NCBI GenBank assembly: GCA_036679605.1
Contig: JAZDCZ010000420.1
Span: 1 to 29,889, forward strand
DNA length: 29,889 nt
Source of the DNA: Gemmatimonadota bacterium
GTDB lineage: Bacteria; Gemmatimonadota; Gemmatimonadetes; Gemmatimonadales; GWC2-71-9
Direction of reading: 5' to 3'
Shown in pieces: positions 4,131-26,357 of this stretch. Position 1 is the first letter of the stretch. Every line of letters starts with the position of its first letter. A model generated the notes under the pieces. The model was not told where the DNA came from, made no database searches, and saw nothing but the letters and a program-made list of their open reading frames with translations. Both the position numbers and the translations under genes were made by a program.

Positions 4131-5906
4131 TCAGGGTCTGCCAGCCGGAAACACGTGATGCCTTGCACCCGACATCGGCTGGGTGTCGGGATAGCTCAGC
4201 GGATTATGATCGACGTTGTGACAGGTGAGAAAACACTCGCCTCGCCCACGTCCCATAGAACGGAACTCCAATAAACCGCTCGACGAAGCGGTAATCACCT
4301 CTTCGCCCGCGCGTCCGAGCCGAAGGAAGTTGATCAAGGCACGATTCGATCTCGAACCGTGCGCATCGTGGCAAACCGCACAAGAAGTTTCTTCAGTTAC
4401 AACGTGCTGAAAATGCGAAAACCCGCTGGCGTCCGCAAGCAATGAAGCCCGGTTGTGGCATCCGTAGCACAACCCATAGCTCTGGAATGCTTCCATACTC
4501 GGATCCACGATCTGATACAGTGCGCGCAGGATGGGCTCGAATGTCGACCCATGCGGGCCGCCGGTGTTAGCGGCCACTCCTCCCCCGGACCCGTGACAGT
4601 CGCTACACTTAATGATCGACGATGCTGTGTAGCCCGGTTCCAGCCCTTCGATCGCCTGGTTACGCCCCGCCGCTTCTATGGGGTGATACGACTCATTGTT
4701 GGTGGCCACCTCGAGCCGGGTATTGGATACATTGTCTTGTCGGGTCACGAACGCGTCAGCTTCGTCCTGTAACCCGTGGCACTTGTAACAAACCTCGTAC
4801 TCCGCGTTGGCAACTGCACGAAGTACGCCCGATGAATCGATTCCACTAGCCGCGCCCACGCCCCCCCCACCGACCGCTTGTGCCGTAGCTATCTGCACCG
4901 AATGAGGATCATGACAGTCGTTGCATGTCACGTGTCGAGGCATGATGAGAGGATCTTCGTCAGGCTCGTGGACATCCTGCGATATCTCTATCGGATGTGT
5001 GCTGAACGCCCGGAATGCCTCTCCGACATCCGTTTTCGCCATGCCGCCGTCATGACAGGTCAAACAAGTACCGGCTTCGTCCGTTCCCGTGAGCAGCCAT
5101 TCAGGATGAAGAGCAGCGTGGGAGCGGTGGCAGTTCGCGCAACCATTGTCCTCGACGGTCTGATAGTCGGTGTGCGGCCATGGGTTCGCACCGCTAGTGT
5201 GAACAGCCGACGAAGTTGCATGCACGGACCCACGCCAACCGCTGATCCTGTGACAAGACACGCAAAGTTTTGAACCTCGGTTGTCCATCACCAAGAAATG
5301 TTCGTTGTTATCAGTGTGAGCATCGTGGCACGAGGTACATTGCAACTGCTGAGTAGAATCGAGTTTGACCTCTTCGGGTAAGCTGGTCGGATCGGCCAAT
5401 TCTTGGCGGCGAACGGATAGAGCCGTGTCATAGACGAAAGAGATCGGGTGATGACCCGAAAGATCAGTACCGAAAGTAGTGCGAGCCATCGGACTCAATC
5501 GGCTCCGGACGGTTGCGGGCAGAGATCGAGAATGCGACAACGCAAGAGTCCCGTCATGACACGATAAACACATTCGCGAAGCGCCGGTCGGCTGTTGCAG
5601 AGTCGCTTCGAGTGTCGAACTTTCGTAGAGTCGGTACATCGTTCCGCCGGCATTACGCGCCCATCTTGCGACCTTCGGCTCCTCCCGATGCGTTATATGG
5701 CAGTACACACATGTCCCGGGTCGCGCTGTGGCTTTCCGGACTCCCGCGGTGAACGAACTCCTACCCGCGACCGGAGCGAACTTACTGAAATCGTGGCGGG
5801 TTCCCTCGACTCGCGCCGACGCCGACGGAACGGTTAACACCGCGATCGCGACGGTAAGGAACGTCCTCCAGAACAAAGAACGGCAATGGACAGCGAAATC
5901 GATCAA
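4131..5906 (-). CDS. 12-heme cytochrome c: N-terminal OmcE-like tetraheme domain plus C-terminal 8-heme module
   Basis: 11 CxxCH plus 1 CxxxCH (CFLTCH); signal peptide ending ASA-R. Start moved to the in-frame TTG at 5906 just after the upstream stop (5911); ORF-track start 6044 overlaps the upstream gene. Confidence 0.9.
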   Translation of the reverse strand: MIDFAVHCRSLFWRTFLTVAIAVLTVPSASARVEGTRHDFSKFAPVAGRSSFTAGVRKATARPGTCVYCHITHREEPKVARWARNAGGTMYRLYESSTLEATLQQPTGASRMCLSCHDGTLALSHSRSLPATVRSRLSPMARTTFGTDLSGHHPISFVYDTALSVRRQELADPTSLPEEVKLDSTQQLQCTSCHDAHTDNNEHFLVMDNRGSKLCVSCHRISGWRGSVHATSSAVHTSGANPWPHTDYQTVEDNGCANCHRSHAALHPEWLLTGTDEAGTCLTCHDGGMAKTDVGEAFRAFSTHPIEISQDVHEPDEDPLIMPRHVTCNDCHDPHSVQIATAQAVGGGGVGAASGIDSSGVLRAVANAEYEVCYKCHGLQDEADAFVTRQDNVSNTRLEVATNNESYHPIEAAGRNQAIEGLEPGYTASSIIKCSDCHGSGGGVAANTGGPHGSTFEPILRALYQIVDPSMEAFQSYGLCYGCHNRASLLADASGFSHFQHVVTEETSCAVCHDAHGSRSNRALINFLRLGRAGEEVITASSSGLLEFRSMGRGRGECFLTCHNVDHNPLSYPDTQPMSGARHHVFPAGRP

Positions 5907-5910
5907 CCGT

Positions 5911-6957
5911 TCAGTTTCCGGCCAGGAATCGGAATACCTGGATCCGATGGTTATGAGAGTCGGCAACATAAATCGTGTCATCCCTGGCGATAGCCAATCC
6001 CGTCGGCAACCAGAACTCTCCAGGACCGACGCCGCGCTTTCCAAACGACAGCAGTAACTCCCCCGTCACGTCGAAGATCTGAACGGAATCGAACAAGGCA
6101 TCCACTACGTATAGATTTCCGTTACTATCGCGTGCAATACCCTTCGGACGTGCGATATCGCCCGAAACATTTCCGGCACGACCGAAAGTCGATACGAACG
6201 TGCCGTCGCTCTTGAATACCTGCACGCGGAAATTGAGCGAATCTACGACGTGCACCAGTTCGCCGGGGTCCACGTATACGTGACTCGGCCAATTGAACTC
6301 TCCTTCGCCTAGTCCATGGGTGCCGAAGGTAAACAGAATTCGCCCCTCGAGGTCGTACACCACGACATGATGGCGAGCCGCGTCAACTACATAGAGCCGC
6401 CGCAGAGTTTCATCGATTGCCACTCCGCTGGGGCGGGCCAGTTCTCCTTGTCCCCACGTATCACGCAGACGGCCGTCACGCCCATAGAGGTATACGCGTC
6501 CGAGTGCGGAATCGGTCAAGTAGACGGTTCCCTCATTACCGATTGCGACCCCCACGGGCGAAACCAGCTCACCCGCGTCGCCTTCGGTTATTTTTTTATA
6601 GCGCCTCGCTTGACGGTCGACGAGAAACAGTGCCGCTTTTCCCGGGTCCGCTACCGCCAGAAGACTGCCGGCAGTCGCGATCGCCGTAGGCCGCACGAAA
6701 GCCTCGTCACTGCTGATACCCGCGATACGTCCAAGCAGGTCAAAGAATGATCTGCTCACGCCGAGATCGGCAGTGCCGTTGAACGCGGTCACGTAGGCGA
6801 TCTTGGGCGGATATGGCGCCGCCGGCCAGAGGATTTCTTCTGCCGGAAGACGATCCTCCGGTATACGCTCGGGGTAGCGCGGACCCGCAGAGGAACATCC
6901 GCACGCCCACGCAAACATCAAGCAGGCGACAGTCGTGACGATCTGACCCTGTTTCAT
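5911..6957 (-). CDS. NHL-repeat six-bladed beta-propeller lipoprotein
   Basis: Lipobox-like AWACGC; WPAAPYPPKIAY motif; repeated F..P.GIA.D..G.LYVVD..N.RVQVF blades. Confidence 0.92.
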   Translation of the reverse strand: MKQGQIVTTVACLMFAWACGCSSAGPRYPERIPEDRLPAEEILWPAAPYPPKIAYVTAFNGTADLGVSRSFFDLLGRIAGISSDEAFVRPTAIATAGSLLAVADPGKAALFLVDRQARRYKKITEGDAGELVSPVGVAIGNEGTVYLTDSALGRVYLYGRDGRLRDTWGQGELARPSGVAIDETLRRLYVVDAARHHVVVYDLEGRILFTFGTHGLGEGEFNWPSHVYVDPGELVHVVDSLNFRVQVFKSDGTFVSTFGRAGNVSGDIARPKGIARDSNGNLYVVDALFDSVQIFDVTGELLLSFGKRGVGPGEFWLPTGLAIARDDTIYVADSHNHRIQVFRFLAGN

Positions 6958-6967
6958 AGTGGCATCC

Positions 6968-9076
6968 TCAAAATAACCGTCTTACTATCTTCAAATCAAA
7001 ATGGAACGCTGTCGACTCTCGGTCTCCGACCATCCGGCGGCTCACGCGAAAGTTCGGGACGATTTCGAGCTTCGCGAAATCCAAGCGTAAGCGCACCCCA
7101 GCGTCGATATGCTGTTCTTCGGGAGCCAACGAATCGTCGCGTTGGAGATAGGCCGCATAGTATTCGGTCTTCAGATAGCGTGTTGGTTGCCACCGTATCG
7201 ACAACCTCCCCAGCAGTGTCGTAGTGTCGCGGTCGGGATCGGTGAACTGGAAGAACGACTGACTCAGATCGGCAGTAAAAAACAGCCGTCGCTTTGGGTG
7301 CATGGAAAACGACTGCCTGAAAATGGGAGATGTGTAACTCAAGCGGTCGGATCGGAAATCTCGATACTCGGCCGCTAACGTCATCGATCGTGCCGGCTGC
7401 GCCCACTTCAAACGAATTCCCGTGTTGAAATCTTTCATGTCGTTGAGAAAGCGATCGTCATCGCCCTCAACGAGATCTTGCTTCGTTTCGAAACGCTTCA
7501 CGAAGATCAATAGCCAATCGTAGTCGAGTGCTAGATCGACGTCGAACCTCCTGGTAGTAAACTCGAAGGCATTCGAGGTGAGGAAACGGTAATCCACCAA
7601 GAGAGTCTGATTGTCCTGAAAGAGGCCGCCCGGCAACCGTTCCAGAGCCGTCGCATCGCCGACCTGGACAATGCGGTAATCCACTCCCTCATTGAAGATC
7701 GTCGTACCCGCTTGGTCCGTTACCCGGATGGTTCCGGGAACCACGAACGAATTGTCGAGAAAAATGAGCGCGAAGCCGGAAACCAGCCGTACTTCTCCGA
7801 ACACGAAGAGCTGTCCAGCCGGGGATTCCTGTTGGTCCACACGGTAGGAATTGCGTATGCCCACCTGCAAGCGGCCGTTGCGTGGAATTCTCTTTTTGTA
7901 TCTTAGCCCGCCGACACCTTCATAGCCCCTAATCGTACCGAAGTCGCCGTCGGTCTCGTTGGCCGTAGCCTGTAGTGAACTCGTCAAGCTGCTGTAAAGC
8001 TGATGTTGAATGCCCACCTTGGCGAGTTGTGTGATGGTCGCACTCCCGTCCTGATCCGTCTCGAGATAGGTATAGTCATACAGCGACGCGAACGAGTCCG
8101 TGTGGTCCATCCGTAGGTTGACGTCCGCTCTGCCCGTGCTCAGATCAAACCTCCCCTGTCGCGAAAAGTACCGCAGGCGGGTTCTGAGATCCTTTTCCAG
8201 GTACGGGCCGAAGAACAACCGGTAGCCGATCGCCCCGTCGTGGGCGTTGAAACTGAGACTCGTTACAACTTCATCTTCGACGTCCTGGAAACGATAGTCC
8301 AAGCTCAGCTCGCTGACTTCTCCAAGCCTCGTGCCGCTATAGGACAACTCGCTGCGGTTCTCCGCACGACGGAACACATCGGGTCCGAAACGCTGAACCT
8401 CGTCGAACTGCTCGCTCAGATAGCCGAGCACCGATCGCAGGCGGGGATCGTCGAGGTGCAGCCGAACACCGAGGGTCTGGGCTGTAATGTCCTTGGTCCC
8501 GGCGAATTGCTGCGACTGAACATCCTTGGTTCGACTGGCGGAAAGATCAAGAGAATACGGCTTACCCCCGAGGAACGTCGCGCTCGTGTCGTATCCGACC
8601 AACTCTCCCTCGGCATTCCCGGATTGTCCGACGGAATCAAAAGATTCCTGGAACATTCCGAACGTCGCTCCCAAGCGAAACGTCAACAGCCTAGGGTCCC
8701 ACACCATTCCACGTGTTCTCACTCTCAATCTCTCGTCAAAGTGGACACGACTAAAGCTGCTCGAGGAACCTTGACTGCGAGACACGTCCTGTTTGTCCCA
8801 CTGAAAACCCAACTGAAGTTCTCCGCGCCAGCCTCCTATCAAAAATATCGGACGCTTGCGTACACCAACGGGCACCAGCGGCGGAGCTCCCTGGTAAAGC
8901 GACAACGAAGCTTTCTCCGCGACTGGAACAAGAGGGGACGGCGCTTTTGCTGTGGTTTTCTCCGTATCGTCTTCTGCGACCGGAGGCTGGCCTTGCGCAG
9001 CGACACGCGCACCCGGGACAACCAGAACAGCCCCAAGCGCAAGCGTCGCGATAGTTTTTCCGCGATCCTTCCTCAC
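6968..9076 (-). CDS. Large outer-membrane beta-barrel protein (putative cytochrome export/conduit channel)
   Basis: Start at GTG 9076 (GTGA overlap with upstream stop) gives signal peptide ...ARVAA-Q; many alternating amphipathic strands rich in Y/F/R; C-terminal beta-signal ending LKIVRRLF. Confidence 0.85.
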   Translation of the reverse strand: MRKDRGKTIATLALGAVLVVPGARVAAQGQPPVAEDDTEKTTAKAPSPLVPVAEKASLSLYQGAPPLVPVGVRKRPIFLIGGWRGELQLGFQWDKQDVSRSQGSSSSFSRVHFDERLRVRTRGMVWDPRLLTFRLGATFGMFQESFDSVGQSGNAEGELVGYDTSATFLGGKPYSLDLSASRTKDVQSQQFAGTKDITAQTLGVRLHLDDPRLRSVLGYLSEQFDEVQRFGPDVFRRAENRSELSYSGTRLGEVSELSLDYRFQDVEDEVVTSLSFNAHDGAIGYRLFFGPYLEKDLRTRLRYFSRQGRFDLSTGRADVNLRMDHTDSFASLYDYTYLETDQDGSATITQLAKVGIQHQLYSSLTSSLQATANETDGDFGTIRGYEGVGGLRYKKRIPRNGRLQVGIRNSYRVDQQESPAGQLFVFGEVRLVSGFALIFLDNSFVVPGTIRVTDQAGTTIFNEGVDYRIVQVGDATALERLPGGLFQDNQTLLVDYRFLTSNAFEFTTRRFDVDLALDYDWLLIFVKRFETKQDLVEGDDDRFLNDMKDFNTGIRLKWAQPARSMTLAAEYRDFRSDRLSYTSPIFRQSFSMHPKRRLFFTADLSQSFFQFTDPDRDTTTLLGRLSIRWQPTRYLKTEYYAAYLQRDDSLAPEEQHIDAGVRLRLDFAKLEIVPNFRVSRRMVGDRESTAFHFDLKIVRRLF

Positions 9077-9405
9077 TGCTGCACATGACACACGGGGCAC
9101 TTGTCGAAGGTAACAGACCAGGCTGTCTCGGAGTTGTGGCAGGCGCCGCAGTACTGTCCCGCACTGATGGCATCCATGGTGATCTCGGGGCCCGTGATTT
9201 CCATCGGAAAGATTTTCGTATGGCACACCGCGCACTTGAACCGTATCCGGTGAAACCAGTGAGGAAACACGGCCGGAGGGATATCAGTGACGGTCTCTCT
9301 TGCTGGAAACTGAATGTCGGCCGGAGCGGCAACCGCTCGATGCACAGGCGTAGAGGCGAACATCACCACACACGCAGCCGCAAGCACTATCCACCGTATC
9401 GCCAC
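9073..9405 (-). CDS. Small c7-type triheme cytochrome c
   Basis: FPHWFH, CAVCH, IF.M, CGACH, CPVCH; signal peptide from GTG 9405 with GAGGTG RBS (alternative GTG 9417). Confidence 0.9.
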   Translation of the reverse strand: MAIRWIVLAAACVVMFASTPVHRAVAAPADIQFPARETVTDIPPAVFPHWFHRIRFKCAVCHTKIFPMEITGPEITMDAISAGQYCGACHNSETAWSVTFDKCPVCHVQQ

Positions 9406-9406
9406 T

Positions 9407-11587
9407 TTAACGGTCACCTCTTGCGAGATCGGTACGCGTCGGCGCCAGTGAGAGCACGTGGTAGACGATCGGCCAGGCAAGCTCGGGGTCGAGAACATCC
9501 CCGAACGAAGGCATTGGAGTGCCGTCGAGGCCCGTCATGATAGTGCGGTAAATATCTTTCAGGGAAGGGCCGCTCTTCAGAGACCTACCGCTGGCGAAGT
9601 TGGCCGGTCGGATCGGATATCCCCAGTTGTCGGCAAGTCCTTTCGCCGACGGCCCGTCCCCGCGCCCGAGTTCGCCGTGACAAGAGCTGCAACCGGCATC
9701 CTTGAACAACTGTGCCCCCTGGACCATCAGCTCCGGGGTAAGTGGCATCGGTTCCGGGATTTCAATCGCGTCGGTCGCCTCTTCCTCCTCGAACCGTGAC
9801 GAGAACGTTTTCAAGTAATGAACCAATGCCCAACGCTCCTCGCGCGGCAACAAGGACCAGGGGGGCATCGACGTTCCCGGCACGCCTACAGTTATCGTGC
9901 GATAGATGTCCGCGTCGGTCGGGATCACTCCACCCGGCGTTGTGCGAAACTTGTAGGTTCCTTGGCGAAAGTCACGCGGTTTCGGATCGACATTTTCCGC
10001 AGCCATGCCCGCTCCGTCCCCTGCTTCTCCGTGGCACACGGCACACTGTTGAAAATACACCAAGGCTCCGAGTTCGAGTAGTTCCGCAGTAGCAGAGACG
10101 GGGTTCGCACGGGCTTCAGCGAGATCGGCCGCCACAGTCTCGACATCGGGCATGAATATGCCGGGCTCATTTTCAGGGTGTCCGCGACGTGACCGAGCAC
10201 TCGCTTTGTCGCGCAACGAGACGACATGATACATGATCGGCCAGGCGTACTCTTCGCCCAAGACCTCCCCGAAATCGGGCATCGGCGTGCCGTTGAGTCC
10301 AGTCATCACGGTACGGTAGATCGACATGATGCCGGGCCCGCTCTTCAACGGCTTGTCACTGAGAAAGTCGGCCGGCCGAATCGAATAACCCCAGTCGTCG
10401 TGCAAACCCGATGCCGATTGCCCATTGCCATCGCCGGTATCCCCATGACATGCGCTGCAACCGGCGTCTTTCCAAAGCTGAGCACCCTGTTCGAGCAGCT
10501 CATCGGTCACCGCCACGGGCTCCGGAAAGTTGATCGGTTCAGCCGGTTCTTCCTCCTCGAATCTATCGGAGAACGACTTCACATAATGCACCAAGCCCCA
10601 ACGATCCTCGTAGGAGAGTCGCGCCCAAGCTGGCATCGACGTGCCCGGCGCTCCCATGGTGATAGTTCGGAATATGTCGGCATCGAGCGGCAACGAACCA
10701 CCCGGCGTCGTACGGAACTTGTACGTCCCTTGCCTAAAATCTCTCGGTTTCGGATCCAGGTAGGTCGCACCGGCTCCCACACCATCACCCTCCTCTCCGT
10801 GGCACATGACGCAGTACTGGGCGTACGCGACCTTGCCCTTTCTCAAGAGGCGCGTAGTCGCGGGCATGGGGTTGGTTCTCGCGCGCTCGATATCCACGTC
10901 GACGACATCGCCCCTCGGTGGTGCTCGTAGCCCGGTGTGGCACCGCACACAGTTGGCTCTGGGATCGAAAGCCACCTTGCCGTGACAACGGCCACAGTAT
11001 TTGCCGGCGAAAACGTCTTCCATCTCGAACTCATTGGAACCGGCCTGCATCTTGAAAATTGAAGGATGGCAATTCGAACAGTCCAGCCACAGGGTGTGAG
11101 AGAAATGCGGAAAGGTAACCGTAAACGGCGATTCTGGATCCATGACGATATCCAATGGAAACGGCATCGGCGTGCGCAGATCCGGGTCGCGGAATCCGCG
11201 CGGTGCCACCGTCCCTGAACGTACCGCTTCCACCCAGTCGACCTCGCCGGTAATGTTCTTGGGAAGCATCGCGACTGCGTCGTCCCATGTATGCACGGTC
11301 TCGATCTCTGGAACCTCAGGCTCCGGTGGCAGCTCCTCTTCGGGCTGGTCAACCTGCTCGGGGCCTTTGCCGATTTTCCACGCGACCAAGCGTCGCGTAC
11401 GCATCGGTTTGCGCTCCGGACGTTCGACTCCCGCAGGCGGAACGTCGTCAAAAATAGAGGTCAGAACACGATAGCGCAGTTGTGGATCACACCCGCTGAG
11501 AAAAGCGGTGCCCAATGCAAGTACGAGCGCGATTCCCCCCTTCGACACCCCCCGGCTTACCGAATGCCTTGGTCTAACCGTAGGCAC
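9407..11587 (-). CDS. 7-heme hybrid cytochrome c lipoprotein: c7-type triheme domain plus two duplicated class-I diheme modules
   Basis: Lipobox FLSGC; CSNCH/CGRCH/CVRCH preceded by FPHFSH; CVMCH, CSACH, CAVCH, CSSCH each followed by PR/PA(D/N)F and GT(S/P)MP Met-ligand motifs. Confidence 0.92.
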   Translation of the reverse strand: MPTVRPRHSVSRGVSKGGIALVLALGTAFLSGCDPQLRYRVLTSIFDDVPPAGVERPERKPMRTRRLVAWKIGKGPEQVDQPEEELPPEPEVPEIETVHTWDDAVAMLPKNITGEVDWVEAVRSGTVAPRGFRDPDLRTPMPFPLDIVMDPESPFTVTFPHFSHTLWLDCSNCHPSIFKMQAGSNEFEMEDVFAGKYCGRCHGKVAFDPRANCVRCHTGLRAPPRGDVVDVDIERARTNPMPATTRLLRKGKVAYAQYCVMCHGEEGDGVGAGATYLDPKPRDFRQGTYKFRTTPGGSLPLDADIFRTITMGAPGTSMPAWARLSYEDRWGLVHYVKSFSDRFEEEEPAEPINFPEPVAVTDELLEQGAQLWKDAGCSACHGDTGDGNGQSASGLHDDWGYSIRPADFLSDKPLKSGPGIMSIYRTVMTGLNGTPMPDFGEVLGEEYAWPIMYHVVSLRDKASARSRRGHPENEPGIFMPDVETVAADLAEARANPVSATAELLELGALVYFQQCAVCHGEAGDGAGMAAENVDPKPRDFRQGTYKFRTTPGGVIPTDADIYRTITVGVPGTSMPPWSLLPREERWALVHYLKTFSSRFEEEEATDAIEIPEPMPLTPELMVQGAQLFKDAGCSSCHGELGRGDGPSAKGLADNWGYPIRPANFASGRSLKSGPSLKDIYRTIMTGLDGTPMPSFGDVLDPELAWPIVYHVLSLAPTRTDLARGDR

Positions 11588-11610
11588 GGGTAGTAGAAAT
11601 ACACCGTTTG

Positions 11611-13917: not shown

Positions 13918-13925
13918 CTGTCTGT

Positions 13926-15767: not shown

Positions 15768-16875
15768 CCTCGGGCAGCTCTATGAAACTGTCTTCGGCCG
15801 TCGTATTGATCAGTTGATAAATATCGAGGCGGTTATTCAGGTAATCGGCGACATAGATCCTGTCGTCGTCGTCGATCGTCAGCCCGGTCGGATTACGAAG
15901 CAATCCGGGGAAAGCGCCACGTCCCCCGAAGTACAAGAGGACCGTCCCCTCTTGGTTGAAGATCTGAACATTCGACCAGCCCGAATCGACAACATAGATA
16001 TTGCCGAACGAGTCGAGCGCCACACCTTTGGGCTTGTCGAACATGCCGAAGCCGTTACCACGCTCGCCGATCTGACGAACGAAGGTCCCGTCGGGTTCGA
16101 AAATGCATACCCGGCTGTTGACCGTATCCGTGACGTAAAGCCTCCCCTCGTCGCCGATCGCGAGATAGGTGGGAAACATAAGATAACCGTCTCCTGTGCC
16201 CTTGCCCTTGCCGATGTTGCGCAGGAAATGTCCTTCTTCGTCGAAAACCTTCACGTAGTGATTCGACGATTTCTGGTGTGAGCCGTCGACGACGTAAATC
16301 ACTCCACGTTCCTCGTCGACTTCGATATCCGTCGGTCGTTCCAGAGACGGATCGGTGAACTGTCGCACAATACGGCCGCTGCGATCAAAGACGCTTATGA
16401 TCTTCGTTTCTTGTTCGACAACGTAGAGATTTTCTTGGTCGTCCAGCGCGATACCGAAGGGATACGACCAGGTTCTCTGTTCGCCTCCTATTTGTATCAT
16501 CTCCTTGCTGTCGCGGTTCAATAGATAAACGCTTTGAGTTCCGAAATCCGAGACGTAGATACGCCCCCCATCCTCGGACACAGCAATATCCATCGGCTGC
16601 ACGAGATGATCGGCGGGAGGCTTGTCGCCCGTCAGGAACGCACTCACAGTATCAGCGAAAGTGGTCTCTCGGCCGAGATCGCGTTCACTCGCGAGCGCCG
16701 TCAGGAACTTGATCCTCGGCTCGAGCGGAGGTTCCGGCCACACCGGTTGGACAATGCGCGAAGCCTCCGTCGACTGGTTCGACTGCGTGACGCTACAAGC
16801 GCCGACCATGCCGGCGATGACAACGGGCAGGAGTAGTCCTGAGGCGATACGTACTCTCAATCTCATCATCACCAT
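15748..16875 (-). CDS. NHL-repeat beta-propeller lipoprotein
   Basis: Lipobox MVGAC; WPEPPLEPRIKF motif; NHL blades such as FDKPKGVALDSFGNIYVVDSGWSNVQIF; paralog of 5911-6957. Confidence 0.92.
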   Translation of the reverse strand: MVMMRLRVRIASGLLLPVVIAGMVGACSVTQSNQSTEASRIVQPVWPEPPLEPRIKFLTALASERDLGRETTFADTVSAFLTGDKPPADHLVQPMDIAVSEDGGRIYVSDFGTQSVYLLNRDSKEMIQIGGEQRTWSYPFGIALDDQENLYVVEQETKIISVFDRSGRIVRQFTDPSLERPTDIEVDEERGVIYVVDGSHQKSSNHYVKVFDEEGHFLRNIGKGKGTGDGYLMFPTYLAIGDEGRLYVTDTVNSRVCIFEPDGTFVRQIGERGNGFGMFDKPKGVALDSFGNIYVVDSGWSNVQIFNQEGTVLLYFGGRGAFPGLLRNPTGLTIDDDDRIYVADYLNNRLDIYQLINTTAEDSFIELPEDEADAE

Positions 16876-16929
16876 ATAACCATTCTAGCGGCAACGGCCC
16901 ACTCGAACCCGAATTTCGCCGTTGCGATG

Positions 16930-17646
16930 CTACTTGCTCAACACGAATGTCACGGCCGCTTCACCTCCCGAGGACACCGACACCTTCTGCGTCTTTTTCC
17001 CCAGCGTTTCGTGCCAGACCTTGAGTTCATAGTCTCCCGCAGGCACGTCCTCGAGCTTGAAGGCGCCTTTTTCGTCGGTAACGGCATAATATGGATGCTC
17101 GCGGACAACGATATAGCCTTTCATCCATCCGTGCGCGTCGCAGGCCACTTTGACGAACTCGGGAGAGGCAAACTTCCGTTTCATCTTCTTTTTGAAACCC
17201 GGCTGCGCGACATTGAAGGCGCGGTTCGTCTTACTGTATGAATGTAGGTTATGCAGAATTCCGTCACTGTTGAGCACCTCCATCTCGGTATCCGGTGTGG
17301 CCAGCACGACATGGGGATCGAAGTGACAACCGTTCTGATCCAGCGTTACCGTCTCGGCCGGCCAGGCCTTTCCTTTGCCGATAGCCGCCAAGTACACGAC
17401 CGCATTCTGAACACCGCCGTCAGCGCCAACAATCAGTTCTTCGGAAAGTTTGGACTCCTTACCGCAGACTTCTTTGTCCCTGTCTATATTGATCGCCGCT
17501 CTTGCTGGTGCTGTTCCCGAAAACTTTACTACACCGGCAACCACACCTCCGCCGCTTACCTCTCCGGCCTCGTACGCCCCTACCGCCGCCGGCATAAGCA
17601 TCGAAATGAACAGTCCTGACAGAACTATTATAAAGCCAAAACGCAT
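16930..17646 (-). CDS. Secreted cupredoxin-like protein with carboxypeptidase-regulatory-like domain; putative type-1 copper site
   Basis: Start ATG 17646 with GGAGG RBS and signal peptide; LDQNGCHF.P, NSDGILHNLH, CDAHGWM (H...C-x2-H-x2-M); TDEKGAFKLEDVPAGDYELKVWHE. Confidence 0.85.
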   Translation of the reverse strand: MRFGFIIVLSGLFISMLMPAAVGAYEAGEVSGGGVVAGVVKFSGTAPARAAINIDRDKEVCGKESKLSEELIVGADGGVQNAVVYLAAIGKGKAWPAETVTLDQNGCHFDPHVVLATPDTEMEVLNSDGILHNLHSYSKTNRAFNVAQPGFKKKMKRKFASPEFVKVACDAHGWMKGYIVVREHPYYAVTDEKGAFKLEDVPAGDYELKVWHETLGKKTQKVSVSSGGEAAVTFVLSK

Positions 17647-17760
17647 GATTACTTCCTCCTGGTCTCTTTCCTGTGTATCTAAATCAAAAACGTGAGGGAG
17701 CCAGAGCATTTGCACGCCCCGGCTCCCCCTTTGCAGTCTTGTTGCACGCCATCGCGGTAT

Positions 17761-17808
17761 GTCCCTAAGAGGAGTCGAACCTCTGTTTCCGCGCCGAGCA
17801 AGGAGTGT
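17761..17808 (-). other. Degenerate tRNA-Glu-like 3' half (non-functional remnant)
   Basis: Minus strand ACA-CTCCT-TGCTCGG-CGCGG-AAAC-AGAGG-TTCGACT-CCTCT-TAGGGAC: perfect 5-bp T-arm, 4-nt variable loop, CTC at the anticodon position. Anticodon stem is broken and no D-arm or 5' acceptor strand is present. Confidence 0.4.
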
Positions 17809-17973
17809 TAAGGAATCTGATTCGCACACATTGCCTTGCGTTCACCCCCGGACGCGGCGTCCTGGGCCACTAGACGATAGGGACTGTATTCTCGCGATAG
17901 ACTACGACTTACGCTCAGTATCGATCCGCAAGCCCGTCGAAAATATCGACTACACTCGACCTCCTTTGAGAAG

Positions 17974-18000
17974 CCGCCGCCCCTTGGAGAGGGGCGGCGG
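17974..18000 (-). terminator. GC-rich hairpin downstream of OmcE-like copy B
   Basis: CCGCCGCCCCT-TGGAG-AGGGGCGGCGG 11-bp stem ~40 nt past the stop; followed on the minus strand by CTTCTC (weak tail). Confidence 0.65.
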
Positions 18001-18041
18001 GTCACGGAACTCGAAACTACCCGTTGCGTCTGCGCGACCAC

Positions 18042-18875
18042 TTACTTGTCGTGACACTTCAGGCACAGATAACCGGAGGGGCCGCTCGAGTTGCCCGTTA
18101 GAGTTCCGCGCAGGAAGTAAGAGTCCTGCACCGTCGAACTGTTGTGCGGGTCATGACACGAGGAGCACTCGATACCGGCGTTGCCTTCCTGTGCTCCGGC
18201 CAGGGCGCTGCCCGCACCGGAATCGACGAAGAGCCGAATGCCGTTGACGCGAGGGTCGGGCACCCACTCCATGACGACGTCCGCTCCTGTGGTTATGCCG
18301 TTGTAGGTCTCACCGCTGGTGTTATTGAACGGGAACGGCACACCCACCGGATGGTTACCGCTCAGGTTACCCCCTTGACCGACCGTGATCGGCTGGTCGA
18401 GATGGGTTTCCGGATTTAGAGGCGTAGTCGGCGCAACCTTGTCGAACCAAGCTACATCGCCGATAGCGACGCTACCGTCGTGGCAAGACAGACAGTTACG
18501 TGTCGGCCCTATCCACGTCTGCAGGTTCGATGGCAGGTCCGTGCCGCCCATCGTCGTTGTCTCATCCCAAGTATAAGCCTGGGAGGCCATGGTGTGGTTC
18601 CACAGCAAGCGTGTACTGATCGCGCGGTGAGGCGTGTGGCAGAATGTACACAGCCCGACGGCGACCGGGGCCGCGCCCCCCGTGGATGTCCCGTCGGTGA
18701 AGTCGTGTGGACTGCCGGCCAATCCGCCTTGGGCCAAGCTGGACGCGGGCATGATCATGATCAACACCATGGCAACGGCCACCGACATCGCAGCTAGGGC
18801 CGCTGTCCGTGGCCGCAACAGGTTATTGCTCTCGTCTTCGATTTGATTGAGTTCGATCTTGTATGTTCGCTTCAT
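18042..18875 (-). CDS. OmcE-like tetraheme cytochrome c (putative nanowire subunit), copy B
   Basis: SPHDF, CTFCHTPH, LLWNH, CLSCHDG, NHPVG, ECSSCHDPH, FLR, LCLKCH: the motif order of Geobacter OmcE; long signal peptide ending SLA-Q. Confidence 0.92.
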   Translation of the reverse strand: MKRTYKIELNQIEDESNNLLRPRTAALAAMSVAVAMVLIMIMPASSLAQGGLAGSPHDFTDGTSTGGAAPVAVGLCTFCHTPHRAISTRLLWNHTMASQAYTWDETTTMGGTDLPSNLQTWIGPTRNCLSCHDGSVAIGDVAWFDKVAPTTPLNPETHLDQPITVGQGGNLSGNHPVGVPFPFNNTSGETYNGITTGADVVMEWVPDPRVNGIRLFVDSGAGSALAGAQEGNAGIECSSCHDPHNSSTVQDSYFLRGTLTGNSSGPSGYLCLKCHDK

Positions 18876-18937
18876 GGCTTGCCCCCCCCCATCGGAGCGA
18901 CCGTAAATCGTAATTCACTGACTAGTGACTTACACAG

Positions 18938-18954
18938 AGCAAAAGGGCTGCCAG
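18938..18954 (-). promoter_or_regulatory. sigma-54 promoter, copy B
   Basis: Minus strand CTGGCAGCCCTTTTGCT, GG-N10-GC. Confidence 0.9.
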
Positions 18955-18988
18955 CTCGGCGGAGCCCCCACGGCAAGCTCCCAATACC

Positions 18989-19013
18989 GGCTAACTAGCT
19001 AATTAATAGTATG
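18989..19013. promoter_or_regulatory. AT-rich IHF-like bending site, copy B
   Basis: GGCTAACTAGCTAATTAATAGTATG, identical in both duplicated promoters, 35-60 bp upstream of the -24 box; partial match to YAANNNNTTGATW. Confidence 0.55.
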
Positions 19014-19270
19014 GTTTACCGATCCACGCGTGCTCGACGAATGTCGATAAACCCAGCGGGCCGTCCCAGCCCTGAGACAATTGCGACCGCAGGGCAAACT
19101 AAGAACTGGAGGTATCTAATTAAAAAGATTCGGGAATCATCCCCGTCCTAGGCTTGTCACGCGAACGAGACGGCTGTCACCGGATTCTCTGTGGTGAAAC
19201 CGCTCGGGGACAGTCTCCTGCAGCCGCCAGCGTCGGGTTCGGGCGAAGGCATGAATCGCAAAGCGGCGTT

Positions 19271-19483
19271 TCAAGTGCGGAAGTCTTCGGGGGTCAGAGC
19301 GTGCTTCTTCAGCAAACGGTAGAAGGTGCCGCGCGGAAGCTGTGCATGCTTCGCAGCCAAAGAGACATCACCTTCGAATCTTCGTAGTAAATCGGTCAGA
19401 TAGTCGCGCTCGAACCTGTCCCTACACTCGGAACGAAGTCGGAAAAAGCCCTCCCGAACGGACGCCTTGCCGGCCCGGATCAT
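19271..19483 (-). CDS. Stand-alone Fis-type HTH derived from the 3' end of the sigma-54 regulator (small gene or pseudogene fragment)
   Basis: TDLLRRFEGDVSLAAKHAQLPRGTFYRLLKKHALTPEDFRT nearly identical to the C-terminus of 20710-22089; ATG at 19483 where the parent has GTG; frame intact. Confidence 0.6.
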   Translation of the reverse strand: MIRAGKASVREGFFRLRSECRDRFERDYLTDLLRRFEGDVSLAAKHAQLPRGTFYRLLKKHALTPEDFRT

Positions 19484-19502
19484 AACGCACCCGTCTACGG
19501 GA

Positions 19503-19536
19503 ACCCGCCGCCCCTTGATAGGGAGGGGCGGCGGGT
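19503..19536 (-). terminator. GC-rich hairpin downstream of OmcE-like copy A
   Basis: ACCCGCCGCCCCT-TGATAGGG-AGGGGCGGCGGGT 13-bp stem; homologous to 17974-18000; no clear U-tract. Confidence 0.6.
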
Positions 19537-19571
19537 CAACGAACTCGAAACTGCCCGTTGCGTCTGCGCAA

Positions 19572-20402
19572 TCACTTGTCGTGACACTTCAGGCACAGAT
19601 AACCGGAGGGGCCGCTCGAGTTGCCCGTTAGAGTTCCGCGCAGGAAGTAAGAGTCCTGCACCGTCGAACTGTTGTGGGGGTCATGACACGAGGAACACTC
19701 GATACCGGCGTTGCCTTCCTGTGCTCCGGCCAGGGCGCTGCCAGCACCGGAATCGACGAAGAGCCGAATGCCGTTGATGCGAGGATCGGGCACCCACTCC
19801 ATGACGACGTCGGCTCCTGTGGTTATGCCGTTGTAGGTCTCACCGCTGGTGTTATTGAATGGGAACGGCACACCCACCGGATGGTTACCGCTCAGGTTAC
19901 CCCCTTGACCGACCGTAATATCCTCGTCGACATGCTTTGCCGGGTTTAGAGGCGTAACCGGTACGACCTTGTCGAACCAAGCTACATCGCCGATGGCAAC
20001 GCTGCCGTCATGGCAAGACAAACAGTTACGTGTCGGTCCTATCCACGTCTGCAGATTCGATGGTAGGTCCGTGCCGCCCATCGTCGTTGCTTCATCCCAA
20101 GTATAAGCCTGAGAGGCCAAGGTATGGTTCCACAGCAAGCGCGTACTGAACGCGCGGTGAGGCGTGTGGCAGAATGTACAAAGGCCGACGGCGACCGGGG
20201 CTGGCCCCATCTCTGTTCCGTCGGTGAAGTCGTGCGGACTGCCGGCCAATCCGCCTTGGGCCAAGCTGGCCGCGGGCATGACCATGATCAACACCATGGC
20301 AACGGCCACCGACATCGCGGCTAGGGCCGCTGTCCGTGGCCGCAAAAGGTTATTGCTCTCGTCTTCGATTTGATTGAGTTCGATTTTGTATGTTCGCTTC
20401 AT
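19572..20402 (-). CDS. OmcE-like tetraheme cytochrome c (putative nanowire subunit), copy A
   Basis: Same motifs as copy B; differs mainly in two loops. Confidence 0.92.
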   Translation of the reverse strand: MKRTYKIELNQIEDESNNLLRPRTAALAAMSVAVAMVLIMVMPAASLAQGGLAGSPHDFTDGTEMGPAPVAVGLCTFCHTPHRAFSTRLLWNHTLASQAYTWDEATTMGGTDLPSNLQTWIGPTRNCLSCHDGSVAIGDVAWFDKVVPVTPLNPAKHVDEDITVGQGGNLSGNHPVGVPFPFNNTSGETYNGITTGADVVMEWVPDPRINGIRLFVDSGAGSALAGAQEGNAGIECSSCHDPHNSSTVQDSYFLRGTLTGNSSGPSGYLCLKCHDK

Positions 20403-20447
20403 GATTTCTCGGAGCGTCTGTAATTCGCTGGTTTCTGCCCCTCACAA

Positions 20448-20464
20448 AGCAAAAGGTCTGCCAG
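20448..20464 (-). promoter_or_regulatory. sigma-54 promoter, copy A
   Basis: Minus strand CTGGCAGACCTTTTGCT, GG-N10-GC. Confidence 0.9.
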
Positions 20465-20499
20465 CCCGGCGGAGCCCTGAGGGCAAGCCCCCCAATATC

Positions 20500-20524
20500 G
20501 GCTAACTAGCTAATTAATAGTATG
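20500..20524. promoter_or_regulatory. AT-rich IHF-like bending site, copy A
   Basis: Identical 25-mer to 18989-19013. Confidence 0.55.
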
Positions 20525-20662
20525 TTTTACCGGTCCGACCGTGCTCGACGGATGTCGATCAACCCCGTGAGCGGTCCTAACCCTGAGACAGTTGCTACCG
20601 CGGGGGCAGGTCCTCAATGGGGTACTTTACTGAAAAGACTTGGGAATTGTCTCTACTCCGAG

Positions 20663-20705
20663 CTTGTCACGCGGACGAGTTCCGACTTGTCACACGGACG
20701 AGACG
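20663..20705. promoter_or_regulatory. Candidate upstream activator sequence (bEBP enhancer): 17-bp direct repeat
   Basis: CTTGTCACGCGGACGAG (20663) and CTTGTCACACGGACGAG (20686), 23-bp period, ~200-240 bp upstream of -24; homolog CTTGTCACGCGAACGAG at 19153 in copy B. Confidence 0.55.
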
Positions 20706-20709
20706 ACGA

Positions 20710-22089
20710 TCAGCGGAAGTCTTCGGGAGTCAAGACATGCTTCTTGAGCAAACGGTAGAAGGTACCGCGTGGAAGTTGGGCGTGTTTCGCAGCCGAAGAG
20801 ACATCACCTTCGAATCTTCGCAGCAAATCGGTGAAGTACTCGCGCTCGAAGCTATCCATACGCTCGGAGCGAAGTTGGAAGAAACCCTCGGGAGCGGAGG
20901 CCTCGCCGGCCTTTACCACAACTTCGTCGGGCAAGTCGTCGACCGAGATTTGGTCGTCGCGGGCCAGCACGAGGGTACGCTTGACGACGTTCTGCAGCTC
21001 GCGAACGTTCCCCGCCCAAGGCGCACGTGACAGAACATCCAAACACTCCGCGTCGATACGGGGTTCACTCCGCCCCATTTCCTGCGCGTAGCGCTCCACA
21101 AAATGAGTCACCAACAAGGGAATGTCGCTTCGCCGTTCGCGCAACGGCGGTACTTCCAGGTGAACTACGTTTACACGGTAGTATAGGTCCTCCCGGAAAC
21201 TCCCGGCACGCATCGCAGCCATCAGATCTGTCCGGGTCGCAACCAGCACACGTATGTCGACTTTGATCTCCTTTTTTCCTCCCACGCGCCGGAAAGTCCT
21301 CTCTTGCAAAGCGCGCAGGAGCTTCGCCTGTAGCGACACCGGAAGCTCGGCGACCTCGTCTAGAAAGAATGTCCCACCATCAGCGAATTCCAGCAGTCCG
21401 ATCATTTGCGTGTCGGCCCCGGTGAACGCGCCTTTTTCGTGACCGAAGAACTGGCTTTCCATCAAGTTTTCCGGGATTGCTGCACAATCCACGGGCACAA
21501 ATCGAGCACCGCTTCGTCGACTCCGTTTATGTATGCTTCTCGCCACCAACTCCTTGCCCACTCCCGTCTCTCCCGTTATGAGCACGTCGGCTTCGGTATC
21601 GGCGACTCGATTGATGGTATCGAATATCTCCTTCATCGGCGCACTAGAGCCGATGATCTCATCGAATCGATAGTCGCGTTCTACTTGTCGCTGAAGCAGG
21701 CTGTGTTCTACACGTAACCGCTTCTCATCGAGAAGCCTTTCGGCGATAGCCTGTAACTCATCGGGCTGAAACGGCTTGATCACATAATCTGCCGCGCCGA
21801 CCTTCAGCGCTTCGACCGCCGTGTCGACCGTCGGAAACGCCGTAAAGACGAGTACGCTGAGATTCGGTTCGGCTTCCTTCGCCAGGCGCAAAAGTTCGAT
21901 GCCGTTCATGCCGGGCAATCGGATATCGGTGATCAAGAGGTCGAAGCTCTCCGCCGAGATACGTTCGGCCGCTTCGCGCCCGTCCGTCTCGGTCACGACC
22001 TCGACCGATGGGATCTTGCGAAGAATATCGCGACAAACTTCAAGAATGCCGACCTCATCGTCGACTACCAAGACGCGACGTTCAGCCAT
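20710..22089 (-). CDS. sigma-54-dependent response regulator (NtrC/AtoC family: REC-AAA+-HTH)
   Basis: VLVVDDE / LITDIRLPGMNG receiver; GETGVGKE Walker A; ESQFFGHEKGAFTGA; FLDEV; WAGNVRELQN; Fis-type HTH. Confidence 0.97.
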   Translation of the reverse strand: MAERRVLVVDDEVGILEVCRDILRKIPSVEVVTETDGREAAERISAESFDLLITDIRLPGMNGIELLRLAKEAEPNLSVLVFTAFPTVDTAVEALKVGAADYVIKPFQPDELQAIAERLLDEKRLRVEHSLLQRQVERDYRFDEIIGSSAPMKEIFDTINRVADTEADVLITGETGVGKELVARSIHKRSRRSGARFVPVDCAAIPENLMESQFFGHEKGAFTGADTQMIGLLEFADGGTFFLDEVAELPVSLQAKLLRALQERTFRRVGGKKEIKVDIRVLVATRTDLMAAMRAGSFREDLYYRVNVVHLEVPPLRERRSDIPLLVTHFVERYAQEMGRSEPRIDAECLDVLSRAPWAGNVRELQNVVKRTLVLARDDQISVDDLPDEVVVKAGEASAPEGFFQLRSERMDSFEREYFTDLLRRFEGDVSSAAKHAQLPRGTFYRLLKKHVLTPEDFR

Positions 22090-23914
22090 CTACCGAGCCG
22101 CCCTCGTCGGCGCCAAGCACCAAACGCAACTTGACCCGGAAAGCCGTGCCGCGACCCGGTTCGCTCTCGATATCTATCTCGCCGCCGTGGCTCGTGACGA
22201 TGCCCAAGCAGATCGCCAAGCCCAACCCGGTGCCACGCTGTTCCCCCTTGGTCGTGAAAAACGGTTCGAATATACGACTGCGCACTTCATCCGGAATACC
22301 TACTCCGGAGTCCTCGACTATGATCGCCAGGCAGCGTTGACCGTTCGAGAGGCGCTCGCCCGCAGTACTTATCGACACCGTTAACGAGCCGCCGTTGGGT
22401 AGTGCGTCGAGCGAGTTCAGAAATAGGTTCAAAAATACCTGCTCCATTTCGTCGGCGTTCGCCTCCACAAGCGGTACCCTTTCGTCGATGTTGTCGACGA
22501 TCCGTACCTCCATCTTCTTGGCTCGTTCCGACAACATTGCGAGGGAACGTCGGATAGAAATCGAGACGTCTACGGGCCCACAAACGCCCGTAGAAGGCCG
22601 ACTGTAGGATAACAATCCTCCCGCGATTGCCGCAACCCGGTCGGAAAGCCGAATGAATTTGGCTATCTCATCCGCACACTTGTCTGACATTTCGCCGCGA
22701 TGGTCGGAGAGCAACAAACGGGATTTGGCCCCAATAATTGTTATAGGGTTGTTGACCTCGTGGGCCACATGGCCGGCGAGCTCACCGACCGCGCTCAGAC
22801 GGCCCGCTCTGAGCATCTGCGCTTCGGCTTCTTTTTGCTGGGTAACGTCCTGTGCCAGCTGGACGACTCCGCGCATCGCTCCGTCGTCATCGACGAGAGG
22901 AGCCGTAGTCAGGCGAGCTATGTGTTCTCGCTGAAACATCAAGTTCGTCGATTCGGAAGCAATGGCGTCCGCCGGCAACGCACACTCGGTGATTCTCACC
23001 ATTTTGTCATCGCGTGTGCTCTGAGACGGCGCCGTGTGGCCACCGTTGTCAACGACCGATGTCGGCCCCGGACAACCGTCGTCGCTCACGACCGGGCCTT
23101 TTTCATGAAACCACTGTTCCCATAGCCGGTTCACCCAGCGCGGCTTCAACTGCATGTCTAATACACGCAGGCCGGCACCGGTCGTTTCGAGAGCTTGCTC
23201 TAGAAGCCGGTGTTCCGCCCGCGCTTGGTATACGGCATCTTCCAACTGATTCTCGTACGACCGCGCGCGTCGAGCCAAAGTAGTCACAAGATAGGCTACG
23301 ATAAACAGCTCGCCGATTTCAACTGTAGTTTCACGCACTACTTCGAGAGAGTCCCAATCGGTGCCGGATACCGGCCCGAAAGCTAACGGCCCGAGTTGAA
23401 AACCCAACGGATGGAGAACCCCCGCCCATTCGCCCCAGGTAACCAGCGACAACAAGACCGCGGCAACTATCGCTACCGCGTAACATTGTCGTGGCGAAAG
23501 CAATACGCCAGCCAAAATTACATGGAGAATGTACAACTCCGAAAACGGATTGCCGAGATAACCGGAAAAACTCAGAAGGATCGTAAGAATGGTAAGATCG
23601 CCATAGACCTGAAGCGGCAATAGCCTCTTTATCCAGATGCGTCTTGTTACCAAGAAGGAAACGACCAAGTTGAAAGCCGCCAGAACCGCGACGGTCGCGA
23701 GCAAGGGGATGAAAACCGTGTCGGGCAAAACCTCCAGGATCTTCACCGCAAAGACCGTAAGAACGCCCGCTCCCGCTACGGCGATCCACCGCAAAGCAAT
23801 GAACCAGCGGGCATACGTCGTTAGTCGATCGTCACCCTCGGCGTACTGAAGCGCCCGCCAAGGCGTCGCGGCGGCCTTCTCGTCGAAGCGCGGTGTAGAG
23901 AATTCCCGGTTCAC
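22082..23914 (-). CDS. Membrane sensor histidine kinase (multi-TM, PAS-like, HisKA, HATPase)
   Basis: Several hydrophobic helices; AHEVNNP H-box; QVFLNLFLNSLDA, EDSGVGI, IFEPFFTTK, GTGLGL; overlaps the regulator start by 8 bp. Confidence 0.96.
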   Translation of the reverse strand: MNREFSTPRFDEKAAATPWRALQYAEGDDRLTTYARWFIALRWIAVAGAGVLTVFAVKILEVLPDTVFIPLLATVAVLAAFNLVVSFLVTRRIWIKRLLPLQVYGDLTILTILLSFSGYLGNPFSELYILHVILAGVLLSPRQCYAVAIVAAVLLSLVTWGEWAGVLHPLGFQLGPLAFGPVSGTDWDSLEVVRETTVEIGELFIVAYLVTTLARRARSYENQLEDAVYQARAEHRLLEQALETTGAGLRVLDMQLKPRWVNRLWEQWFHEKGPVVSDDGCPGPTSVVDNGGHTAPSQSTRDDKMVRITECALPADAIASESTNLMFQREHIARLTTAPLVDDDGAMRGVVQLAQDVTQQKEAEAQMLRAGRLSAVGELAGHVAHEVNNPITIIGAKSRLLLSDHRGEMSDKCADEIAKFIRLSDRVAAIAGGLLSYSRPSTGVCGPVDVSISIRRSLAMLSERAKKMEVRIVDNIDERVPLVEANADEMEQVFLNLFLNSLDALPNGGSLTVSISTAGERLSNGQRCLAIIVEDSGVGIPDEVRSRIFEPFFTTKGEQRGTGLGLAICLGIVTSHGGEIDIESEPGRGTAFRVKLRLVLGADEGGSVDG

Positions 23915-23968
23915 AGTGATGGGTTCAGTTCCCTTTACGACGATAGCGGATCTCGGACAAGCCGTTTC

Positions 23969-26308: not shown

Positions 26309-26357
26309 ACGCCGCACTCCCTCCGTACAGCGAAAGGCCTTCAAGTTAAAATCAAGC

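Follow-up and report, generated by a model that had tools for sequence, protein, structure and literature searches.

A probable OmcE/Uet-type electron-transfer locus outside Geobacter with an OmcE-like module in its 12-haem cytochrome

Clusters for OmcE-type cytochrome nanowires are described as having a minimal set of two multihaem cytochromes, two beta-propeller lipoproteins, OmcE and a large barrel, and as occurring in five phyla (Petersen et al., mBio 2026, PMC13712944). The uet cluster of Ca. Tenderia, which has been proposed to serve electron uptake, is described as encoding a tetrahaem cytochrome, a peptidyl-prolyl isomerase (PPIase), a 28-strand barrel, three c7 trihaem cytochromes, an oversized cupredoxin, two NHL proteins and an undecahaem cytochrome (bioRxiv 10.1101/2022.05.06.490989; PMC10734462). 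In Acidobacteriota, the porin-scaffold-cytochrome cluster EET1 is reported with OmcE-like models (Fiorito et al., 10.64898/2026.05.27.727921). The site where nanowires are anchored and the point where electrons enter them are named as an open problem (PMC12307469; PMC13712944), and Petersen et al. describe the OmcE operons as encoding no OmcE-like tip or anchor candidate (PMC13712944). Here, we analyzed a whole contig of 29,889 bp (JAZDCZ010000420.1 of assembly GCA_036679605.1, hereafter the window), which comes from a 6.7-Mb metagenome-assembled genome (MAG) of 434 contigs placed in Gemmatimonadota. The window carries a cluster of multihaem cytochrome genes (Table 1) that is likely to encode an envelope-spanning extracellular electron-transfer system of the OmcE/Uet type. 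This kind of locus is known and widespread, and the present one is new in its composition; the most useful lead from it is an OmcE module inside the undecahaem partner. The initial annotation of this DNA had implied that the system was novel, which does not hold given the published core of five phyla (PMC13712944) and the EET1 clusters of Acidobacteriota (10.64898/2026.05.27.727921). It had also regarded the copper protein and the His/Met hybrid cytochrome as unusual, and both have a precedent in uet as described, with its cupredoxin and c7 cytochromes (bioRxiv 10.1101/2022.05.06.490989).

Two genes of the cluster, omcE1 and omcE2, encode tetrahaem cytochromes of 277 and 276 amino acids with CxxCH motifs at residues 76, 128, 237 and 271 and a signal-peptide-like N-terminus. 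The two proteins are 94% identical and are sisters in the tree (support 100/99). Searched as a single sequence, omcE1 aligned over its full length (residues 33-277) with residues 8-232 of the OmcE filament of G. sulfurreducens (PDB 7TFS, E value 1.2e-11). A profile of 28 tetrahaem sequences matched 7TFS at 2.6e-20 and the OmcE bundle of D. soudanensis (9YUQ) at 1.6e-15, while the next PDB match was at E 0.003 and OmcS at E 0.88. His57, His83, His175 and His244, together with the four CxxCH motifs, are invariant in 28/28 sequences and align with the histidines of OmcE, and all eight haem-ligating histidine positions of OmcE are kept. Judged by sequence, the tetrahaems are therefore full-length homologues of both solved OmcE filament subunits, and the initial description of them as OmcE-like was correct. 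The locus also resembles the omcE clusters of Desulfuromonadia (7TFS, 9YUQ) in having four CxxCH motifs with four further ligand histidines in a full-length homologous tetrahaem, and propeller lipoproteins, a large barrel and two multihaem cytochromes nearby (PMC13712944); the barrel and beta-propeller lipoprotein neighbours by which that paper recognizes such loci, as it describes them, are both found here. In contrast to those clusters, identity to OmcE is only about 30%, the tetrahaems have two extra invariant histidines (His94 and His158), and there are three propellers rather than two. In addition, a cupredoxin-like protein, a c7/class-I fusion cytochrome and a sigma-54 two-component pair are added, and glycosylation genes are absent from the locus.

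The uet clusters of Ca. Tenderia electrophaga/Tenderiales and Gallionella (Eddie et al. 2022), compared here by their description, share the parts list, including two NHL proteins and an 11-haem cytochrome, and all listed uet part types except the PPIase are present in the window. Many of the 70 related loci described below also come from gammaproteobacterial lithotroph lineages. Compared to uet as described, the gene order here is different, the c7 domain is fused to class-I domains, and an extra pair of a 14-haem cytochrome and a propeller is present. In the literature searched, no link between Uet and OmcE was found, and the only paper that names both treats them separately; our results connect the two, Uet as an electron-uptake cluster and OmcE as a nanowire cluster. 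By description, EET1 is alike in its conserved porin, scaffold and multihaem cytochrome, in its OmcE-like models and in its origin from non-proteobacterial soil or peat MAGs, and it is reported to be transcribed (10.64898/2026.05.27.727921). The MtrCAB and Pcc systems likewise place multihaem cytochromes on both sides of a large barrel, and MtrB is the second-best fold match of the barrel here. They differ in that the similarity to MtrB is low (template-modelling (TM) score 0.34-0.38; about 30 vs 26 strands) and in that propellers and a polymerizing-type subunit are added here, and the decahaem models of the MtrA/MtrC family scored far below their cut-offs for the window proteins. From its citations in PMC13194489 and PMC13712944, the osc (OmcS companion) operon of G. 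sulfurreducens (Shen et al. 2025) is alike as a dedicated gene set, with barrel-type secretion components, for assembling a cytochrome filament, whereas OmcS is a hexahaem cytochrome without recognizable sequence similarity to the tetrahaems.

The tetrahaem family is large, with 4208, 2416 and 133 clusters at 50% identity for E value thresholds of 1e-3, 1e-10 and 1e-30, respectively, and 350 matches among GTDB species genomes; as a locus, it adds one more case to a family whose sequence clusters number in the thousands. We kept 70 related loci, in many of which contig ends and the 10-kb flanks limit the synteny counts. According to their record titles, these loci are from Gammaproteobacteria (20), Betaproteobacteria/Burkholderiales (14), 'Deltaproteobacteria' (12), Acidobacteriota (5), Myxococcota (5), Binatia (4), Nitrospirota (3), Rokubacteria (2), unclassified Proteobacteria (2), and Schekmanbacteria, Gemmatimonadota and 'bacterium' (1 each). 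The full core of OmcE, two propellers, the barrel and two multihaem cytochromes was found in 31/70 loci from at least nine phylum-level groups. Acidobacteriota, Myxococcota, Binatota and Rokubacteria are among the groups to which the kit is extended by these results. The commonest gene order is NHL375, omcE, c7 trihaems, barrel, NHL348 and the 11-haem cytochrome. NHL348 directly follows the barrel in 36/36 loci and lies directly upstream of the undecahaem (mhc12-type) gene in 33/34, and NHL375 adjoins the omcE orthologue in 44/52 (33 upstream and 11 downstream). This adjacency of genes suggests that there may be one NHL propeller per exported cytochrome.

A complete OmcE-like module was found within mhc12 at residues 63-265 (about 63-266). 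It aligns with the whole of omcE1 (E 8e-16), and the remainder of the protein is a 7-8-haem rod. The only PDB match of mhc12 is OmcE (7tfs residues 12-231, E 4.6e-16), and the module keeps all eight ligand positions. It is present in 29/29 full-length orthologues, of which 28 have 11 CxxCH motifs, and an H-D/N-x motif lies 19-29 residues (mostly 19) before the first haem site in 24/29 orthologues with a well-called start. In comparison, mhc14 shares the C-terminal rod with mhc12 (E 7e-32) and differs in its N-terminal part, which has no OmcE module; mhc14 has no PDB match, and its orthologues, at 61-65% identity, are found in three loci (L010, L034 and L047). Since mhc12 starts with a complete OmcE module, it is a candidate filament anchor, and the module in the conserved 11/12-haem partner is possibly a new lead, as judged from the alignments. 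This differs from the OmcE operons, a contrast that rests on the description of Geobacter-type operons in PMC13712944. The mhc12 module also lacks His94 and His158.

The locus and its relatives thus supply a testable anchor candidate, an OmcE subunit fused to a haem rod, which is always encoded after the barrel and its own propeller. A tentative joint reading, which we hold to be possible rather than probable, is that OmcE-type nanowires have their missing base in the conserved 11/12-haem cytochrome (UetJ type). In this reading, the N-terminal OmcE subunit of mhc12 would seed or terminate head-to-tail polymerization, and the 7-8-haem rod would sit in the ~30-strand barrel and wire the filament to the periplasm. 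Uet clusters would then be nanowire systems, every exported cytochrome would be served by an NHL propeller of its own, acting as a dedicated chaperone, and the nine-histidine tetrahaem at 988-1620 could be a chain-ending subunit. An OmcE-like protein with nine histidines has been speculated to be a chain-ending 'anchor' (PMC13712944). If the joint reading were true, aerobes and lithotrophs would use haem filaments widely, together with class-I cytochromes and cupredoxins, for both uptake and discharge. More widely, the results bear on how frequently electrons are exchanged over long distances in soils and sediments.

The nine-histidine tetrahaem, tet210, is a third OmcE-like protein that was missing from the initial list of genes. 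It has four CxxCH motifs and a signal peptide and matches 9yuq (E 1.2e-11) and 7tfs (E 2.7e-9). In the tree it is a long branch outside the main tetrahaem family, the histidine found after the first CxxCH in the family is missing from it, and no closer relative was seen among the 70 loci.

We rate the chance that the tetrahaem truly forms filaments as somewhat better than even. Several points weigh against a filament-based OmcE/Uet-type system. His94 and His158 are invariant in 28/28 family members and have no counterpart in G. sulfurreducens OmcE, and the AlphaFold2 model of the tetrahaem, made without haems from a 28-row alignment, was unusable (predicted local distance difference test (pLDDT) 38.7). 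No member of this tetrahaem clade is known to form a filament, and in the description of the Uet authors the tetrahaem is a surface cytochrome whose polymerization is only possible (bioRxiv 10.1101/2022.05.06.490989). Moreover, family-model scans found no PPIase domain (UetB) in any window protein, cytochrome-maturation genes are not in the window, and the host assignment is uncertain. The parts of the cluster also have different nearest relatives, and therefore the locus is a mosaic, and its pieces do not necessarily all act together. Not counted among these points is a two-copy model of residues 49-277, built with 4 haems where 8 are needed, which scored 0.26 against a mark of 0.42.

Some of these points would fit the original Uet model, a porin-cytochrome conduit that has no filament. 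In such a conduit, a multihaem cytochrome would be held by the barrel, and the tetrahaem, as a monomer or short oligomer at the surface or in the periplasm, would exchange electrons with the 12- and 14-haem proteins. The extra invariant histidines and the lack of an experimental filament in this clade are consistent with it, as is the rank of MtrB among the structural matches of the barrel, and UetA and UetJ are modelled by the Uet authors as extracellular cytochromes of a barrel-based conduit (bioRxiv 10.1101/2022.05.06.490989). We consider this conduit unlikely, for the tetrahaem is homologous over its full length, and specifically, to two proteins for which only the filament form is known. 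The eight ligand positions are kept, and in OmcE a histidine of the next subunit is needed to ligate one haem (PMC9473688, PMC13712944). In addition, the subunit genes are duplicated and have their own promoters and hairpins after them, which is usual for major structural subunits.

The cluster genes are all co-oriented on the minus strand, as seen from the open reading frame (ORF) list and the family-model scans. The genes initially listed from the kinase to the 12-haem cytochrome are all present in this orientation, except that the 3-haem cytochrome (cyt3_315) lies beyond that range. From 16875 down to 4131, neighbouring genes, taken as maximal ORFs, overlap or are separated by gaps of at most 171 nt, as had been proposed. 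The term 'self-contained', which had been applied to the filament system, was an overstatement, as no cytochrome-maturation, Sec, Lol or Bam genes are within the window.

The nearest relatives vary by block. For the barrel, NHL348 and mhc12, the nearest locus is one from Binatia (L058; 41, 52 and 51% identity, respectively), whereas mhc14, NHL613, Cu299 and the c7 fusion are closest to the Thermoanaerobaculia, Polyangiaceae and 'Deltaproteobacteria' loci L010, L034 and L047. The order in these three is of the type histidine kinase, response regulator, NHL375, omcE, Cu protein, c7 fusion, barrel, NHL613 and 13-haem cytochrome. In the tree, the tetrahaems are sister to an unclassified MAG locus (L007), inside a group labelled Myxococcota, Acidobacteriota and Nitrospirota with one Pseudomonadota row. 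Genes of the mhc12 and mhc14 types were found together within the flanks in 0/70 loci, and the contig has no DNA match in five relatives of the bin. These results could mean that the window is not one system, being either chimeric through assembly or binning or made up of two adjacent clusters that act separately, one with the barrel, NHL348 and the undecahaem and the other with the Cu protein, the c7 fusion, NHL613 and the 14-haem cytochrome. This is very improbable, since genes overlap or abut where the blocks would join (a 20-nt overlap of NHL375 with NHL613 and a 23-nt gap from mhc14 to cyt7_726), the GC content is even along the window, and there is a single barrel for both cytochrome-propeller pairs. 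In addition, one genome (G414) holds both long cytochrome types, though on separate contigs. The locus is real and well preserved.

Two other contigs of the bin also carry genes of this kind. C119 (809-3740) has the end of a barrel gene, an NHL348-like gene and an 11-haem cytochrome that is 40% identical to mhc12, and C128 (3-2049) has an OmcE-like tetrahaem, a 2-haem protein and an NHL375-like gene. These genes are parts of another cluster of this kind, a divergent one, in the bin.

In the OmcE/Uet-type system proposed here, the cytochromes would be exported by Sec and matured by the haem lyases of the host. The barrel, aided by the propellers, would pass or hold cytochromes in the outer membrane, and the tetrahaem would polymerize head-to-tail. 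As in OmcE, one histidine would ligate a haem in the adjoining subunit. The 12-haem protein, with its N-terminal third as an OmcE module and the rest as a haem rod, would link the filament to the barrel, and the c7/class-I fusion and the cupredoxin would connect the conduit to the respiratory chain. The fusion, cyt7_726, is a periplasmic lipoprotein in which a low-potential c7 trihaem is joined to four class-I domains. It matches Pfam Cytochrome_C7, four Cytochrome_CBB3 domains and NCBIfam nanowire_3heme (E 2.1e-18), and a lipobox and four MP motifs are found in its sequence; the class-I domains are of the His/Met, CcoP-like type. Electron uptake or coupling with high-potential carriers is at least as likely as Geobacter-style metal reduction, because four class-I domains are attached to the c7 trihaem, cyt3_315 and the cupredoxin-like protein are present, Uet provides a precedent, and many hosts of such loci are lithotrophs or aerobes.

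The AlphaFold2 model of the barrel protein, barrel755, has a pLDDT of 81.9. From residue 128 onwards it shows about 30 long strands, and residues 485-543 form a small insert. Pfam and NCBIfam gave no match for the protein, and Foldseek returned generic large barrels only (Cir, MtrB at rank 2, LptD and ushers), all with a TM score below 0.4. Its homologues were found in 51/70 loci by tblastn at 1e-5 and in 48/70 with stricter identity and coverage thresholds. Of the three propellers, NHL613 has a C-terminal extension of ~270 amino acids with two copies of a ~60-amino-acid Cys-rich unit (13926-14900). The extension has no family match and is partly conserved in the L034 and L047 orthologues, and in both of these loci NHL613 is followed by mhc14.

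The cupredoxin-like protein is encoded by an ORF of 299 amino acids (Cu299), and its likely start is the Met at 17646. An H...C-x2-H-x2-M pattern is kept in 11/11 aligned homologues from related loci. The N-terminal part has no match to a cupredoxin model of Pfam or NCBIfam or to a PDB sequence; in Pfam and Atlas only the C-terminal CarboxypepD_reg domain is recognized, and Atlas names only CarboxypepD_reg clusters. In two loci of Acidobacteriota MAGs (L014 and L034), one Cu299-like gene lies upstream of the kinase and a second follows omcE.

The subunit gene lies within a tandem duplication of ~1.53 kb, whose unit includes a leftover piece of the activator gene, from its 3' end. The coding parts of the two units are 94-97% identical and the non-coding parts 78-85%. 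An assembly artefact was considered and rejected, because the copies differ by 3-22% along the unit and several other loci hold tandem or nearby second copies. Each copy is preceded by a sigma-54 -24/-12-like promoter and followed by a GC-rich stem-loop. The pattern scored was TGGCAC-N5-TTGCW, and over the whole window it was not enriched (16 matches vs 12.5 expected). In comparison to the background, where 49/5320 windows had this type of element, it was found upstream of 10/60 omcE orthologues and 6/38 NHL375 orthologues. The omcE1 stem-loop has no T-run and was not called by the terminator scan.

The kinase has Pfam matches to HATPase_c and 6TM_PilS (30.0 bits vs a cut-off of 27), and homologues of the activator are found in 22/70 loci. 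By analogy only, the arrangement resembles the PilS-PilR control of pilin in its PilS-like kinase with six transmembrane segments, its NtrC-type activator and its sigma-54 promoters before a filament-subunit gene; the difference is that no pilin is encoded at this locus. On the minus strand, there are two instances of a short word of the GTGACAAG type ahead of omcE2 (20640-20700) and one ahead of omcE1 (19150-19200). Between this word and the -24/-12 site is a palindromic stretch rich in AT. The word and the palindromic stretch are candidate activator and bending-protein sites.

The rpoB of the bin is 89-94% identical to its best matches, and every named match is from Gemmatimonadota. The GC content of the window (58.2%) and its tetranucleotide profile fit the bin. 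The bin has an estimated contamination of 6.3%, and its 6.7 Mb compare with 3.7 Mb for a same-genus relative and 2.0-4.6 Mb for the listed relatives of the same family or order; it may hold foreign contigs. Among 400 sampled Gemmatimonadota genomes, no close tetrahaem homologue was found, and three had matches of at most 40% identity. The 6-kb flank at 23915-29889 had no DNA match in five relatives of the bin, and two control regions of the bin were collinear with the same-genus genome over almost their full length at 69-75% identity. Taken together, the Gemmatimonadota rpoB of the bin and a contig without a match in the relatives indicate that the contig is either an acquired island or mis-binned.

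An origin from Geobacterales was rejected, as no such label occurs among the 70 loci, and the rpoB genes of the bin and of the genome with the closest locus are unrelated to each other (only 42-59% identical). Together with the Gemmatimonadota rpoB of the bin, this upholds the initial view that the locus lies outside Geobacter, whether the contig is an island or mis-binned. On whether the host is Binatia-like, as had been suggested from the flanking genes, the evidence is divided. An LplA-like gene in the flank has no match above 56%, and its best named matches are Ca. Binatia and 'Deltaproteobacteria' (46-47%), with weaker named matches in Planctomycetia and Pirellulales; the barrel block is also nearest to a Binatia locus. 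On the other side stand the rpoB of the bin and the tetrahaems, which group with Myxococcota and Acidobacteriota.

Table 1. Genes and other sequence features of the locus, with positions in the window.
Feature	Position	Strand	Description
Sensor histidine kinase	22082-23914	-	6TM_PilS, PAS, HisKA and HATPase domains
NtrC-family sigma-54 activator	20710-22089	-	REC, AAA+ and HTH; Pfam Sigma54_activat, E 1.9e-69
omcE2	19572-20402	-	Second OmcE-like tetrahaem copy, 4 CxxCH
omcE1	18042-18875	-	OmcE-like tetrahaem, putative filament subunit, 4 CxxCH
Cu299	16930-17829	-	Cupredoxin-like domain and CarboxypepD_reg Ig-like domain
NHL375	15748-16875	-	NHL propeller lipoprotein, partner gene of the OmcE-like subunit; Pfam NHL, E 1.6e-29
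NHL613	13926-15767	-	NHL propeller lipoprotein with C-terminal extension, partner gene of mhc14; Pfam NHL
mhc14	11611-14109	-	14-haem cytochrome: 12 CxxCH and 2 longer motifs
cyt7_726	9407-11587	-	7-haem lipoprotein: c7 trihaem and four class-I cytochrome c domains
barrel755	6968-9235	-	Very large outer-membrane beta-barrel of 755 amino acids
NHL348	5911-6957	-	NHL beta-propeller, lipobox-like N-terminus, partner gene of mhc12; Pfam NHL, E 3.4e-28
mhc12	4131-6044	-	UetJ-type cytochrome: 11 CxxCH and 1 CxxxxCH
tet210	988-1620	+	Divergent OmcE-like tetrahaem paralogue, convergent with the main cluster
cyt3_315	26358-27305	-	Three class-I cytochrome c domains, recurrent accessory gene of such clusters
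hyp252	27354-28112	-	Secreted protein, recurs next to such clusters
Activator 3'-end remnant	19277-19364	-	Direct repeat D4, 85% identical to 20713-20800
Sigma-54 -24/-12-like promoter of omcE1	18938-18953	-	1 mismatch to consensus
Sigma-54 -24/-12-like promoter of omcE2	20448-20463	-	1 mismatch to consensus
Sigma-54 -24/-12-like element	884-899	+	~90 nt upstream of tet210; 1 mismatch
GC-rich stem-loop after omcE1	17973-18043	-	Directly after the stop; direct repeat D5; -35.8 kcal/mol, z -2.25
GC-rich stem-loop after omcE2	19507-19577	-	Directly after the stop; -41.3 kcal/mol, z -4.5

Homologues of cyt3_315 are found in 21/70 loci, often between the omcE and c7 genes, and those of hyp252, which has no Pfam or NCBIfam match, in 10/70. 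On the plus strand, 1969-4119 encodes a secreted protein of 716 amino acids with ~7-9 tandem Cys-rich repeats of 36 amino acids, for which the library scans gave no family match. The gene contains a DNA repeat at 2809-3611 with a period of 108 bp and 74% matches. The gene at 23969-25033 starts with a similar Cys-rich unit ahead of an Lcl_C domain.

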